Source: Escherichia coli
Lineage (GTDB): Bacteria > Pseudomonadota > Gammaproteobacteria > Enterobacterales > Enterobacteriaceae
Assembly (NCBI RefSeq): GCF_016903815.1
Contig: NZ_CP069973.1
Direction: 5' to 3' (one strand)
DNA: 64,000 nucleotides
Position numbers: made by a program
Part shown: piece after piece, positions 12,001-21,000 of the stretch
How positions within the stretch are numbered: the first letter of the stretch is position 1
How the letters are laid out: every line of letters begins with the position of its first letter

Positions 12001-15000
12001 TGGAAAAAGTACGTTCAATAGCCATTTTTACCTCTGTAAATTGTTCTGTTGTTGTCTGTACCAGCGTACGAGATGGCGCGGATTATAATGAGCAACAGGG
12101 CCGTTGACTATTGATGAAGGTAACATTTTTTTAAAATAAACCTAGTTTAAGCAACAATCAGGGACAAAACAGACTATTGCATGACAAATTTCACTGTCGC
12201 GATTTGCCCCACGTCATCCATCACCAGCAATTGATAATCGCCTTTATCCGTCAAATGCAGGGTCACGTTGCGCCCGCGTTCAGTTAACGGTTCGCCGTTT
12301 AGAAACCACCAGCGTTCACCAGCCCCTCCACTTGATTGCAACGGCAAAGTCGCTTCCGCTGCGCCCGGTAAACGTTTAATAATCGCGCCATCGCGAACAC
12401 CTGTCAGCTGTAGTGGGAGTTGTGCATCGTGACCGTATGGCGGGCAAATTGTCGAGGCCGGTGGTAAGCGCACAGCGCGGTGTTCTGATGCGGGCAACCA
12501 GGGTTCCAGCGGTAGCGGCCAGACATTTATCATTTCTTGTCGCGCCTGAGGGCAATCAGCGGCAACACGTTTGCCGTTTTCATCCAGCCAGATGGGGAAA
12601 CGAATGCCATTAATGCCTTCCTGCTCCGGCAGTAATAGAGTTGGCGGCTGACTCCCGTCCAGCAGCCAGGTTGCCAGGCGGAGGCGGCAGTTACCGTCAC
12701 CTTCCGGCAAAGACTGTCCGCCCGGCCAGCAGATAACGCCACGACTTACAGAGTCAGGACGTGGGTCTTCCGGCAGATTCGCACTGCGCGACAGTAAGAT
12801 ATTATTAACCTGATTCAACAATGGTACGGCGCTGGCAAAGCCAAACTGACCAACAACGGGCGTGCCGTCCGGTCTGCCAGTCCAGATCCCAATAACATAG
12901 CGAGCGTTAACCCCAATCGCCCAGGCATCACGATAGCCATAGCTGGTGCCCGTTTTCCATGCCAGTGGGGCGACGCGCGGCAAGGCACCATCCGGCAAGG
13001 GTTGCGCTTCATCAGCCATAATCCGGCGAATGATCCACGCCGCCCCCGACGACATTAAAGGCCGTTCAAGCAGCGGATCGTCAGGCTGTAAGCGCAATTT
13101 GCCTGCCTTGCCGTGGCGAGCAAACGCGGTATAGGCCGCCGCCATATCCCCCAGTTTTGCACCAGCGCCGCCGAGAATGAGCGAAAGATTCGGTGCAGCA
13201 CCGTTGGGCAAATATAACGGCAATCCAACATTGCGTAACTTTGCCGCAAACCGTTTCGGCCCATAGGCTTCCAGCACCTGCACAGCAGGTAAATTCAGCG
13301 AGCGCACCAGCGCCTCGCTCATGCTGATCGGGCCATGAAAACCGCTGTCAAAGTTGCCAGGTCGGTAATCACCGGTACGCCGGGGAACGTCTTGCAGCAG
13401 TGATGCCGGGTGGATCAAGCCTTCATCCAGCGCCAGACCATAAACAAACGGTTTGAGCACCGATCCTGGCGATCGGATCGCATTGACCATATCAACATGA
13501 CCAAAGCGTGAATCATCGTTGAGATCAACCGAACCCACCCAGCCGCGAACACGCATATCGGTATGATCAACCACGATCATCGCCAGTGAGCTGCGCGGTG
13601 GTAATCGTCCTTTCCAGTTTTGCGCCAGTTCTTCCAGACGTCGTTGAAGACCGGCATCCAGCGTAGTAACGATTTTGTCGCTTTTGCTTTTACCGAGCAT
13701 CATGCGCGAAAACAGCGGTGCCAGTTGCGGCATTTGTCGGGGTGCCAGCCAGATGGGTTCTTCCCTTGACTCTTTTACCTGCTCACGGGACCACACACCT
13801 TGCACGGCCATCCGTTCGAGCACTTTATTACGCGCGGCTTCGGCACGCTCCGGCCAACGATCCGGGCGAAGACGGCTGGGAGTTTGCGGCAAAACCGCCA
13901 GCATTGCCGCCTCGGAATAGCTTAAATTCGCAGGCGATTTTCCGAGATAAGCCCAACTTGCCGCACCGATCCCCTGCAACGTACCGCCAAACGGAGCGCG
14001 GTTAAGATACAAGGTCAGAATTTCACGCTTAGACAGATGCCACTCCAGTTGCAACGCGCGCCAGAGCTGGCGAATTTTGCCGCCAAATGTTTTGGGGTGA
14101 GGATCAAGCAGACGAGCAACCTGCATAGTGAGCGTGCTGCCACCGGAAATAACTCTTCCCGAAGTGAGATCTTGCCATGCTGCGCGCGCCACCGAGAATG
14201 GATTCACCCCCGGATGCTTCCAGAACCAGCGATCTTCATAATTGATCAGCGCTTCAAGGTAACGTGGAGAAACATCTTCGATTGTTACCGGATAACGCCA
14301 GATGCCTTCCGCATCGGCAAAGCGCCAGAGCGGCGTCCCATCCTGCGCCACAACCACTCGTGCGGGATTGACTTCATGCAGCGGTAGAGGCCAGAGTTTA
14401 TCTGCTCCCCACGCTGCAAGAAAAAGGAGAAATGGCGCAGCTGCCAGCGTTATCCAGCAGCCGCGTTTGGTTAACAAGCGAGGCATTTACGGTCTGACAA
14501 TCAGCAAATCTTCAGCCGCGCCGGTCGCCCGCCATTGGGGAACATACATTGATTCCACCATCGGTTGCGGTACCTGATACGTTCCCGGCGTCACCGCCCG
14601 CGCCAGATACACCAGCGTTACCGGTTGGTATTCATCAACGGCAACCGCCGCCACAAAGCGATCGTCACGGAACTCAATGTGCTTAATGCTCGCCTGCTGC
14701 ATCTGGTTCAGTAAGTTTTGCACTTCGCCACCACTTTGCTCCAGGCTGGCGCTACCGTTCGCCAGATTCTGATTTTCCAGTTCCAGACCCGCAGGCAGCA
14801 GATCCACGACTAACGCATCCGGCACGCTGTTACTGGCTTTAACCTGCAACCAGACCAGCACCAGATCGCCGCTACGTAACGAGTCCAGCGATTTGCTCTT
14901 ACCATCAGTACCAAGAATATGACGCTCGATTTGCAGCACATTGTTCGCCGGTAAAGGTGCGGATTGCGGATAACCGCTGGCATCCACACGCAGCCATAAC

Positions 15001-18000: not shown

Positions 18001-21000
18001 AAATCTTCGACGTGGAAATCCCACATCCGGTACTGGTTATCGCCCGTGTTAGCGCGAATATGCCACATACCGGTTGCCGCATTGCTATCGAGTGGCCAGG
18101 TAAAGTGGTAGAGGCCATTCTCCGGTTGACTAACGACGCTCCTGAGTACCTGCCCGTCGGGTTTAATCACGTCTAACTTGATGGGTTGATCGGGCAATGC
18201 TTTTCCATCTGCATCACGCAATAAACCATTGAGGATGACTGTTTCACCAGGGCGATAAAGATCGCGCGGGCCAAACATGAAAAACTGTTTGCTATAGCCT
18301 GGCGCGCCAGCAATGTTAAATTCTGCTAAGTCCAGCGCCGGAAGTTTTAAATCGAGTAGCGTTGTCTGACCGTCTTTACGCGCCAGCAGTAATGCCGCGT
18401 TTTTATCATTTTCCAGCTGCACATGCCCCTGAGCATCACTGGTTGCCTGAGTCAGAGTCTGCCCTTTCTCATTTAATAAAGAGACTTCTATTCCTTGCTG
18501 GGCCGCGCCGTTTTCCAGACTTTGGGTAAAGATATCCAGACGATTGTGATAACGGTGAGCTGAAACGCCGATATCACTTAACGTAAACAGCGTCGCGGGA
18601 TTACTGTAATCGTAACGTCCAGCCTGATTCATCACAGCCAGATACACGCCTGCCTGCTGAAGCGGTTTGATATCACCCAGCGGCAGCAATAATTTTTCAC
18701 GGGTGTTACGCGCAGGATTGAGATCAAACCGTCCGGTATAAACCAGATCCGCCATCTGCAGCAGTTTTTCAGACTGCCAGTTCGCCAGCGAATTGCGGTA
18801 TTCCCATTGGCTAATGAATGCAGGCAGAGATTCGGGCTTCACACGGAAGAAGTTAACATCAACATTGTTAACGTTGAGCGCCATTACCGGCAGCCCTTCA
18901 ATAACTTTACCAGGTAACAACGAACCACGGCTGGCAAAACCAACGCTGGGTTGGATATCGCGGGTAGTTATAGTTTTTTCGTAATCTTTACTGAAGGTTG
19001 CGTTGTTGAGTGCTTTGACCTCCTTGCCAATAGTGACGATCAAATCACGTTTCGGTTCGAGGTGGCGTAAACGCAACTCTTTAAGATTATCTGACAGCTC
19101 CCAGGCACCATCCACTTTGCCGCTTTTCTTATCGACGACATGGATAACGCGTGAGAAATCCTGATCCGGGTCGAGAGGAATGGAGAACGTCAGCACCAGC
19201 GTGGCTGCGCCATCAAGTTGAACTTCAGAGAGATCCAGCAATGTCAGCGCCTTACCGGCACTCTGTTGGGCCAGTTTTTGTCGCTCCGGCGCGGAAAGTT
19301 TTGCTGAACTCACGTTTTCTGAAGAGGCCGCTTTAGTAACTTCAGAAGGCGCATCTTTTTTCACCGCTGTTGGCGCGTTATCGTTGTTGTCGCACCCTGC
19401 CAGCGCCAGCATTAGCATGCAGGCGGCTACGCGTAACTTTTTCATTTTTCATCCCTGCCACAATGGCCCGTTAGCAACGTCGAATAATTATTATGCGTGA
19501 GAATTTACGTTATGTAATTCAGTATCACGCCCATACAATCCGAATTTTAGTGAGAATTGTGGCTCAGACAGCCAAATCAGCCTCTTTTGCTTGTCGCTTT
19601 TCACTAAACATCCGACAATTTAGCCTAACCCCGGCAAAAATGGAGATGCCTATGTCCACGACATGGTTTGTAGGAGCCGACTGGCTCGCCGAACATATTG
19701 ATGACCCGGAAATTCAGATTATCGATGCCCGCATGGCGTCGCCTGGACAGGAAGATCGTAACGTTGCTCAGGAGTATCTGAATGGACATATTCCCGGCGC
19801 AGTGTTTTTTGATATCGAAGCGCTTTCTGATCACACTTCCCCGCTTCCGCACATGCTGCCGCGCCCGGAAACGTTCGCCGTGGCGATGCGTGAATTAGGC
19901 GTTAACCAGGATAAGCACCTGATTGTCTATGACGAAGGTAATCTTTTCTCAGCCCCACGAGCATGGTGGATGCTGCGCACCTTTGGTGTAGAGAAAGTGT
20001 CGATTCTGGGTGGTGGACTTGCAGGCTGGCAGCGTGATGATCTGCTATTTGAAGAAGGCGCAGTAGAGCTGCCGGAAGGAGAGTTTAACGCCGCGTTTAA
20101 TCCTGAAGCCGTGGTGAAAGTAACCGATGTGTTATTGGCAAGCCATGAAAATACGGCGCAAATTATCGATGCCCGCCCGGCTGCACGTTTTAACGCAGAA
20201 GTTGATGAACCTCGCCCAGGTTTACGTCGCGGACATATTCCCGGCGCGTTTAACGTTCCGTGGACAGAACTGGTGCGCGAAGGCGAACTAAAAACGACCG
20301 ATGAACTGGATGCGATATTTTTTGGTCGCGGCGTCAGCTATGACAAACCGATTATCGTCAGCTGCGGCTCTGGTGTAACGGCAGCCGTGGTTTTGTTGGC
20401 ACTCGCGACGCTGGATGTGCCAAACGTGAAACTGTACGACGGCGCATGGAGTGAATGGGGCGCACGAGCAGATTTACCGGTTGAGCCCGTAAAATAAGCT
20501 TTTTACAGGCAATAAAAAACCGCCGAATTTGGCGGTTTTTTATTGCTGGTCTGGTTCGCGGCCTTTCCAGCAGATTGTATTACTGCAAGTGTATCTCGTC
20601 TACTCAATACTCGCTTTATGCATCAACGATGTCAAGTAGATAAAAAAGGATAGATTTTGAATTCATTTAGCTTATCAGTCCGAATTCAGACAAATATAAA
20701 CAAATCCCGCTTAATATTAAAATATACTAACTGATAAAAGATATTAGTTAAACGTGTAACTTCACTTTCTTTAAACAACAAAAAACCGCCAAAATCAGGC
20801 GGTTATTTGTTGCTGGTTTGGTTCGCGGCCTTTCCAGCAGATTGTATTACCGTAGTAATGCAAGCGCGTCTCAGCGGACACAATACTCGCCAGTAACTCT
20901 CTCTTTGTCAAGTAAAAGAGAGTTATTATTGTTCTGTTAGTGTATTATCCACTGCGGACCTTTCCGCCGTCTCGCAAGCGGGCGCTGGCTCAAGGAAAGG

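Follow-up and report, generated by a model that had tools for sequence, protein, structure and literature searches.

The best described counterpart of the gene pair considered here, yfhM-pbpC in a 64,000-nt stretch of Escherichia coli DNA (contig NZ_CP069973.1 of assembly GCF_016903815.1; the whole stretch is called the window below), is that of strain K-12. There yfhM (b2520), located in the same position between pbpC and sseA, encodes the alpha-2-macroglobulin (A2M) called ECAM, whose structure has been solved (PDB 4ZIQ, 5A42, 4RTD), and pbpC (b2519) encodes penicillin-binding protein (PBP) 1C, or PBP1c. Work on the K-12 and Salmonella proteins has presented ECAM as a monomeric periplasmic lipoprotein anchored to the inner membrane, which is untethered by cleavage of its bait region, such that the thioester domain (TED) loses its contact with the C-terminal macroglobulin (MG) domain and the thioester reacts with the protease (PMC4498604, PMC3328433, PMC5764988). 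These papers also contain statements on the operon. As related in later papers, Budd et al. (2004) hypothesized that the A2M neutralises invading proteases while PBP1c repairs peptidoglycan (PMC3328433, PMC5764988, PMC7554673).

Other known systems resemble the pair to different degrees. The A2M of Salmonella enterica (SaA2M, PDB 4U48) is likewise a Type I protein with a thioester and a lipoprotein anchor; it is 82% identical to ECAM (PMC4498604) and the YfhM of the window matches it over the full length with 3050 bits, but as the orthologue of another genus it has a shifted numbering, with Tyr1175/Tyr1177 corresponding to Tyr1183/Tyr1185 of ECAM. Eukaryotic alpha-2-macroglobulin, complement C3, and CD109 share with YfhM the MG domains, the bait region, a TED with CxEQ, and proteolytic activation, although the similarity is distant only (E about 1e-6 to 1e-4 in the PDB search). 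In contrast to these relatives, ECAM is monomeric, is anchored to the membrane as a lipoprotein, and has additional MG domains at its N-terminus, and two residues of its thioester pocket come from the TED and not from the C-terminal MG domain as in eukaryotes (PMC4498604). The Type II A2Ms, represented by MagD of Pseudomonas aeruginosa and by the second A2M class of E. coli, are also large periplasmic MG-domain inhibitors with a bait region; however, MagD is devoid of the lipobox Cys and of CxEQ, and its gene is part of the six-gene mag operon and not adjacent to pbpC (PMC5764988). As YfhM possesses the lipobox and CxEQ, and its gene has pbpC as a neighbour, it belongs to Type I and not to Type II.

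We are highly confident that the window carries an intact core yfhM-pbpC pair specifying the ECAM protease trap and a bitopic PBP1c, likely co-transcribed and with pbpC likely translated by ribosomes that restart at its first codon. The locus spans 7272 bp of the minus strand (12174-19445), and many complete E. coli chromosomes are 100% identical to it in DNA, where RefSeq labels the genes yfhM (alpha2-macroglobulin) and pbpC. A match was found in 5425 of 5426 complete E. coli genomes, in single copy each and always on the chromosome. It is an already known, ordinary, and intact core gene pair, for which solved structures exist. The functional hypothesis on yfhM-pbpC is two decades old, and the value of the present check is a negative one: nothing unusual is hidden in the locus. 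The features of yfhM in the window are the following:

14487-19445, minus strand: yfhM coding sequence, ATG start, 1652 aa plus stop, 4.96 kb (six-frame ORF list, Pfam, PDB, RefSeq)
19392-19445, minus strand: signal peptide with the lipobox LAGC (aa 15-18, window 19392-19403), from the translation
16620-16679, minus strand: core of the bait region, aa 923-942, RYGADIYDIYGQVIEGQGRL, identical to K-12
15876-15899, minus strand: thioester site Tyr1183-Pro-Tyr1185-Gly-Cys1187-Leu-Glu-Gln1190, from the translation and published ECAM positions
14544-14669, minus strand: MG10 motifs RDDR (aa 1593-1596) and ESMY (aa 1631-1634), from the translation

YfhM is the E. coli alpha-2-macroglobulin ECAM, a Type I (thioester) bacterial A2M. 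The re-translated yfhM frame has a single terminal stop, with neither internal stops nor a frameshift, and its product displays 11 Pfam domains, all above the gathering score and in the canonical order of an A2M: bMG1, bMG2, bMG3, MG2, bMG5, bMG6, A2M_BRD, A2M, TED, CUB_A2MG, and bMG10. The PDB search matched the ECAM entries 4RTD, 4ZIQ, and 5A42 (crystal and cryo-EM) end to end with 3590-3620 bits. An NCBIfam scan of YfhM returned zero families, which these Pfam and PDB matches make irrelevant. The N-terminus reads MKKLRVAACMLMLALAGC, followed by the cleavage point and DNNDN, and comprises a basic n-region, a hydrophobic core, Cys18, and Asp19 at position +2, that is, the signal peptide with a lipobox Cys that distinguishes a Type I A2M. 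An Asp at +2 of lipoproteins is an inner-membrane retention signal. ECAM is indeed described as anchored to the inner membrane (PMC4498604). The CLEQ tetrapeptide occurs only once in YfhM, at aa 1187-1190 (window 15876-15887), and in ECAM the thioester is formed by Cys1187-Gln1190 and protected by Tyr1183 and Tyr1185; the stretch Arg923-Leu942 is the bait segment that is disordered after elastase cleavage, and RDDR and ExMY contact the TED or the cleaved bait region, shielding the thioester (PMC4498604). CxEQ, the tyrosine pair, and ExMY, as well as the adjacency to pbpC, all marks of the Type I A2Ms, are present together here. The initial annotation, which had described yfhM as coding for a 1652-aa lipoprotein with a lipobox and a CLEQ motif, is thus borne out by the translation (LAGC with Cys18, CLEQ at 1187-1190), by the 11 A2M, thioester, and MG domains in their order, and by the position of CLEQ, which coincides with the published Cys1187-Gln1190 and with the K-12 YfhM numbering.

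The second protein is the class A penicillin-binding protein 1C, the gene and domains of which are arranged as follows:

12174-14486, minus strand: pbpC coding sequence, ATG start, 770 aa plus stop, 2.31 kb (ORF list, NCBIfam, Pfam)
14403-14459, minus strand: N-terminal membrane anchor, aa 10-28, CWITLAAAPFLLFLAAWGA, mean Kyte-Doolittle 1.79 over 19 aa
13809-14309, minus strand: GT51 glycosyltransferase domain, aa 60-226 (Pfam, alignments)
12930-13499, minus strand: transpeptidase domain, aa 330-519 (Pfam)
12186-12428, minus strand: BiPBP_C C-terminal domain, aa 687-767, characteristic of PBP1c (Pfam)

Re-translation of pbpC likewise gave one terminal stop and no internal stop or frameshift. 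PbpC exceeds the cut-offs of two NCBIfam equivalogs, NF008414 (1558 bits, cut-off 1121) and TIGR02073 (912 bits, cut-off 494), and the Pfam domains Transgly (GT51), Transpeptidase, and BiPBP_C follow a transmembrane anchor, which agrees with the single transmembrane segment by which PBP1c is held (PMC3328433). In the GT51 domain, motif 1 is EDRWFWKHPG with the catalytic glutamate in place (Glu84, equivalent to Glu233 of PBP1b) and motif 2, GGSTLTMQ, is retained. S342VLK (SxxK), S396LN (SxN), and K511TG are the motifs of a penicillin-binding transpeptidase fold. PBP1c has in common with PBP1a and PBP1b the GT51 and transpeptidase domains, the motif 1 Glu, SxxK, SxN, and KTG, and carries the BiPBP_C domain as an extra feature. 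A moenomycin-sensitive transglycosylase activity was reportedly found by Schiffer and Holtje in 1999. Neither gene can be a product of chance, given reading-frame lengths of 4.96 and 2.31 kb and Pfam E-values as low as 4e-51 and 7e-52. The gene identities given at the outset, and the claim that both genes are full length, hold: the RefSeq labels, the ECAM matches in PDB, and the PbpC equivalog cut-offs all agree, and no frameshift or premature stop appeared.

Compared with K-12, YfhM is 98.4% identical, with 26 substitutions and the loss of Ser1373 (1652 vs. 1653 aa), and PbpC is 98.6% identical, with 11 substitutions. The lipobox, the bait core, Tyr1183/Tyr1185, Cys1187-Gln1190, RDDR, and ExMY are the same in both YfhM proteins, aa 888-969 show zero substitutions, and the bait core, the thioester pocket, RDDR/ExMY, and the PBP motifs are untouched by any of the changes in YfhM or PbpC; RDDR and ESMY are numbered one less than in K-12 because Ser1373 is missing. 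The gap lies in aa 1368-1378 (window 15312-15344), and it accounts for a locus of 7272 bp here and, for instance, in strain SMS-3-5, in comparison with 7275 bp in most genomes; the 3-nt change is in frame and found in other strains, and the one-codon-shorter yfhM allele is a lineage polymorphism. Thirteen of the 27 YfhM differences from K-12 are gathered within aa 1359-1488 of the TED/CUB region, a clustering that points to a recombined segment or to a surface patch prone to variation. The great majority of the differences from K-12 are synonymous and dN/dS is 0.070 for yfhM and 0.068 for pbpC, values of about 0.07 that place both genes under purifying selection.

Given 98.4% identity and all key residues intact, we infer that the present allele acts like K-12 ECAM, including thioester formation and the covalent capture of proteases. 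After export, YfhM would receive a lipid at Cys18 and stay on the periplasmic side of the inner membrane, where a protease cutting the exposed bait region would cause ECAM to rearrange and expose the buried Cys1187-Gln1190 thioester; the latter would then cross-link a lysine at the surface of the protease, leaving it tethered and sterically hindered. PbpC is predicted to lie in the same membrane as a bitopic class A PBP that combines a glycosyltransferase, a transpeptidase-like, and a BiPBP_C domain. According to the published hypothesis, both proteins would cooperate after a breach of the outer membrane, one by trapping proteases and the other by mending peptidoglycan. The pair had been annotated initially as a protease-trap and cell-wall-repair module; protease trapping by ECAM is experimentally established, while the repair by PBP1c and its partnership with ECAM have the standing of a hypothesis, so that the wording "thought to act" was at the right level.

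For the expression of the pair, yfhM and pbpC most likely share a transcript that starts from a promoter between yfhM and sseA, and ribosomes ending at the yfhM TAA most likely restart at the adjacent pbpC ATG. The elements concerned are these:

14484-14489, minus strand: TAAATG junction in which the yfhM stop abuts the pbpC start, seen in the translation and identical to K-12
19452-19456, minus strand: Shine-Dalgarno-like AGGGA, 6 nt upstream of the yfhM ATG (anti-Shine-Dalgarno duplex -6.0 kcal/mol)
19490-19518, minus strand: weak sigma-70-like match ATTACA-17-CATAAT in the 206-bp yfhM-sseA divergent intergenic region, a lead only

The minus strand reads AGA CCG TAA ATG CCT across the junction, with the stop at 14489-14487, the start at 14486-14484, and 0 intergenic bases, exactly the abutment that had been noticed initially. 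No Shine-Dalgarno match was found in the 25 nt before the pbpC ATG, where the best anti-Shine-Dalgarno duplex is +0.4 kcal/mol, in comparison with -6.0 for yfhM, -7.1 for ndk, and -6.4 for sseA. The two genes thus have the form of a coupled pair, with a stop and a start abutting on one strand and no independent ribosome binding site for the second. Downstream of pbpC, the fold of the 148-nt spacer before ndk revealed no terminator-like structure (z = -0.52). In a published table of the sigma-E regulon (PMC2731931), the row for yfgM-bamB-der (b2513-b2511) has its first product labelled "Penicillin-binding protein 1C"; the label is apparently wrong and gives no evidence for sigma-E regulation of pbpC.

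The junction was also compared among other taxa. One genome per species was scanned with a degenerate DNA pattern encoding the PbpC motif EDRxFWxHPGV, which gave at least 120 loci; the search motif biases the sample, and all counts of loci given from here on are among the matches listed. In 66 loci, pbpC is immediately preceded on its strand by an A2M homologue, aligned to its C-terminus; these loci come from Enterobacterales, Aeromonas, the Xanthomonas/Lysobacter group, Burkholderiales, Accumulibacter, Alphaproteobacteria, Bacteroidales, Verrucomicrobia, Lentisphaerae, Fibrobacter, and Acidobacteria. The gap was taken from the in-frame start nearest to the A2M stop, a choice that favours small gaps, and is distributed as follows:

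-4 nt (ATGA/GTGA overlap): 9 loci
-1 nt (TAATG/TGATG overlap): 3 loci
0 nt (Escherichia, Citrobacter): 4 loci
1-3 nt (most other Enterobacteriaceae): 18 loci
4-25 nt: 14 loci
26-150 nt: 13 loci
more than 150 nt: 2 loci
other overlaps: 3 loci

A gap between -4 and +3 nt is therefore found in 34 of the 66 loci, whereas a start codon in the given frame would fall in that range at 0.10 of random positions. The missing Shine-Dalgarno sequence and the conservation of the junction support the co-transcription of yfhM and pbpC. CxEQ is present in all 50 of the A2M reading frames long enough to judge. Another 33 informative loci have no A2M gene, and most of them align to PbpC only to about residue 550-614, such that they appear to code for other class A PBPs. 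Nevertheless, a few of them, such as those of Xanthomonas (L021 and L121) and Panacagrimonas (L064), have PbpC at full length and no A2M gene next to it, while the pair is kept in the loci of X. massiliensis, Stenotrophomonas, Lysobacter, and Luteimonas; from this difference between relatives, the linkage has been lost in some lineages.

One element of PbpC departs from the GT51 pattern:

14067-14081, minus strand: motif 3 of the GT51 domain, GKIRQ, PbpC aa 136-140, with Gln140 at 14067-14069 (alignments)

Gln140 aligns with Glu290 of PBP1b, with Glu143 of PBP1a, and with the corresponding residue of the solved Aquifex and Pseudomonas PBP1a proteins (RKIKE, RKINE), so PbpC does not have the glutamate of the motif 3 consensus RKxxE, and the arginine of the motif is also replaced, by Gly. 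Glu290 of PBP1b has been called catalytic (PMC7400108). K-12 PbpC is the same at this site, which means that Gln140 is neither a peculiarity of the window nor a defect of the strain. Among the sampled A2M-linked pbpC genes, 50 of 64 have Gln, mostly in Gamma- and Betaproteobacteria plus one member of Rhodobacterales, and 14 of 64 keep Glu, these being from Alphaproteobacteria, Bacteroidales, Verrucomicrobia, Lentisphaerae, Fibrobacter, Acidobacteria, and one gammaproteobacterial metagenome-assembled genome. Judging by these alignments, Gln in motif 3 is a trait of the PbpC clade. We found no mention of it in the searchable literature, and it may stand in papers outside it. The Gln variant was also observed in the PbpC-type genes of the Xanthomonas loci L021, L100, L114, and L121 and of the Panacagrimonas locus L064, for which no A2M gene was found within 1.8-4.9 kb upstream; the loci L100 and L114 span only about the first 220-260 residues of PbpC. 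Gln140 is the sole element with a potential for novelty, and it concerns the family and not the present locus.

How far these observations carry the proposed reading depends on its rivals. That one or both genes are decaying in the present strain, as a pseudogene or a non-functional allele, might be thought from the allele being one codon shorter than in K-12 (Ser1373 missing) and from the broken versions found in other strains (an IS5-family insert in yfhM of ECOCN22, and pbpC missing from NCTC9100), but the shorter allele is in frame and common to other lineages such as SMS-3-5, both frames are uninterrupted with dN/dS near 0.07, and all functional motifs are intact, which makes decay a negligible prospect; the pseudogene or frameshift reading was rejected because both frames are intact and under purifying selection. 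The arrangement of the two genes leaves more room for another account, in which the abutment reflects genome compaction only and pbpC is translated independently, either from a site without a Shine-Dalgarno sequence or from its own transcript starting in yfhM. Several facts weigh here against coupled expression from one upstream promoter. A start with the same +0.4 kcal/mol is found in the window at rodZ, and hence the missing Shine-Dalgarno sequence of pbpC is not decisive for coupling; about one-third of the A2M-pbpC loci elsewhere have a gap above 25 nt or an ambiguous start, and gaps of 4-150 nt are frequent in other taxa; genomic SELEX lists a binding site of a minor-sigma RNA polymerase inside yfhM (PMC5493296), and pbpC may have an internal promoter. 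In addition, scans for promoters and terminators over 11500-20000 gave counts that did not exceed those of shuffled sequence, such that the match upstream of yfhM is no better than chance and has to be taken as a lead and not as a finding. Against independent translation stand the zero intergenic bases, the absence of a Shine-Dalgarno sequence, and the tight junctions of 34 of 66 diverse loci when 10% would be expected, 9 ATGA/GTGA and 3 TAATG/TGATG overlaps included, and we regard it as somewhat unlikely. In E. coli, pbpC is most likely translated by termination-reinitiation coupling. Of what the initial annotation had implied from the abutting codons, the abutment itself stands, and the missing Shine-Dalgarno sequence together with the tight junctions elsewhere has strengthened the case for translational coupling, which we infer as plausible.

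The linkage of both genes could also mean something other than trapping plus mending, with the two proteins co-expressed but PBP1c serving as a membrane partner or scaffold of ECAM, or acting as a glycosyltransferase of conditional or attenuated activity. That PBP1c might interact directly with the ECAM C-terminus was proposed by Neves et al. (PMC3328433). PBP1c has no known role in standard laboratory conditions and cannot replace PBP1a or PBP1b (PMC7554673), and the first phenotype ascribed to it, the only one reported, needed overproduction (PMC6131605). Moreover, because the Gln of GKIRQ, at the PBP1b Glu290 site in E. coli and in 50 of the 64 A2M-linked PbpC proteins, replaces the second catalytic glutamate, a straightforward role of PBP1c as a repair polymerase is not assured. 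On the other hand, Glu84, GGSTLTMQ, and the SxxK, SxN, and KTG motifs are all retained, and overproduced PBP1c allowed LdtD-dependent incorporation of NADA in a PBP1b-deficient strain, which fits a glycosyltransferase activity in vivo (PMC6131605). We consider such a non-repair function of PBP1c unlikely, and the more specific proposal that the Gln makes PBP1c an attenuated or conditionally activated polymerase, for example one turned on only when ECAM is triggered, very unlikely. If true, the latter could explain the missing laboratory phenotype and would give the trap and repair hypothesis a testable handle. The function of PBP1c, its cooperation with ECAM, and the relevance of Gln140 are questions on the whole family and not on the present window, for which we favour the intact ECAM-PBP1c pair as described above.

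Disruptions of yfhM-pbpC in nature are rare. In ECOCN22 (NZ_CP186528.1), the otherwise 100% identical locus has yfhM split by an insert of about 1.07 kb annotated as an IS5-family transposase, and NCTC9100 (NZ_LR134239.1) matches only positions 2295-7272 of the query, so that essentially the whole pbpC is gone.

The surroundings of the pair are those of a standard E. coli chromosome. From 485 to 64000, the window is colinear with strain 7/2 (NZ_CP023820) with one mismatch, and the genes follow the usual order der-bamB-yfgM-hisS-ispG-rodZ-rlmN-ndk-pbpC-yfhM and then sseA-timP-sseB-pepB-isc. An IS3-like element of the IS1203 family ends in the window, occupying positions 1-484, and has the ALIL frameshift pseudoknot of Rfam at 33-149. 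The element sits within sinH, an intimin-like inverse autotransporter gene, and the junction between both is common to only 7 complete E. coli genomes, e.g., those of strains 222 and 103; strain 7/2 is devoid of this insertion and otherwise identical to the window. The spacer between sseA and sseB is AT-rich and has Rfam matches, both on the plus strand, to IS128 RNA (20644-20822) and ryfA (20954-21258), the latter overlapping timP, a small toxic-protein gene (21100-21225); the K-12 annotation of this spacer lists timR, ryfA, and timP. The expected housekeeping RNAs were found as well, namely, the small RNA sroE between hisS and ispG (7756-7847), the iscRS stability element between iscR and iscS (28491-28600), and the small RNA GlmY upstream of qseE/glrK (57836-57983).

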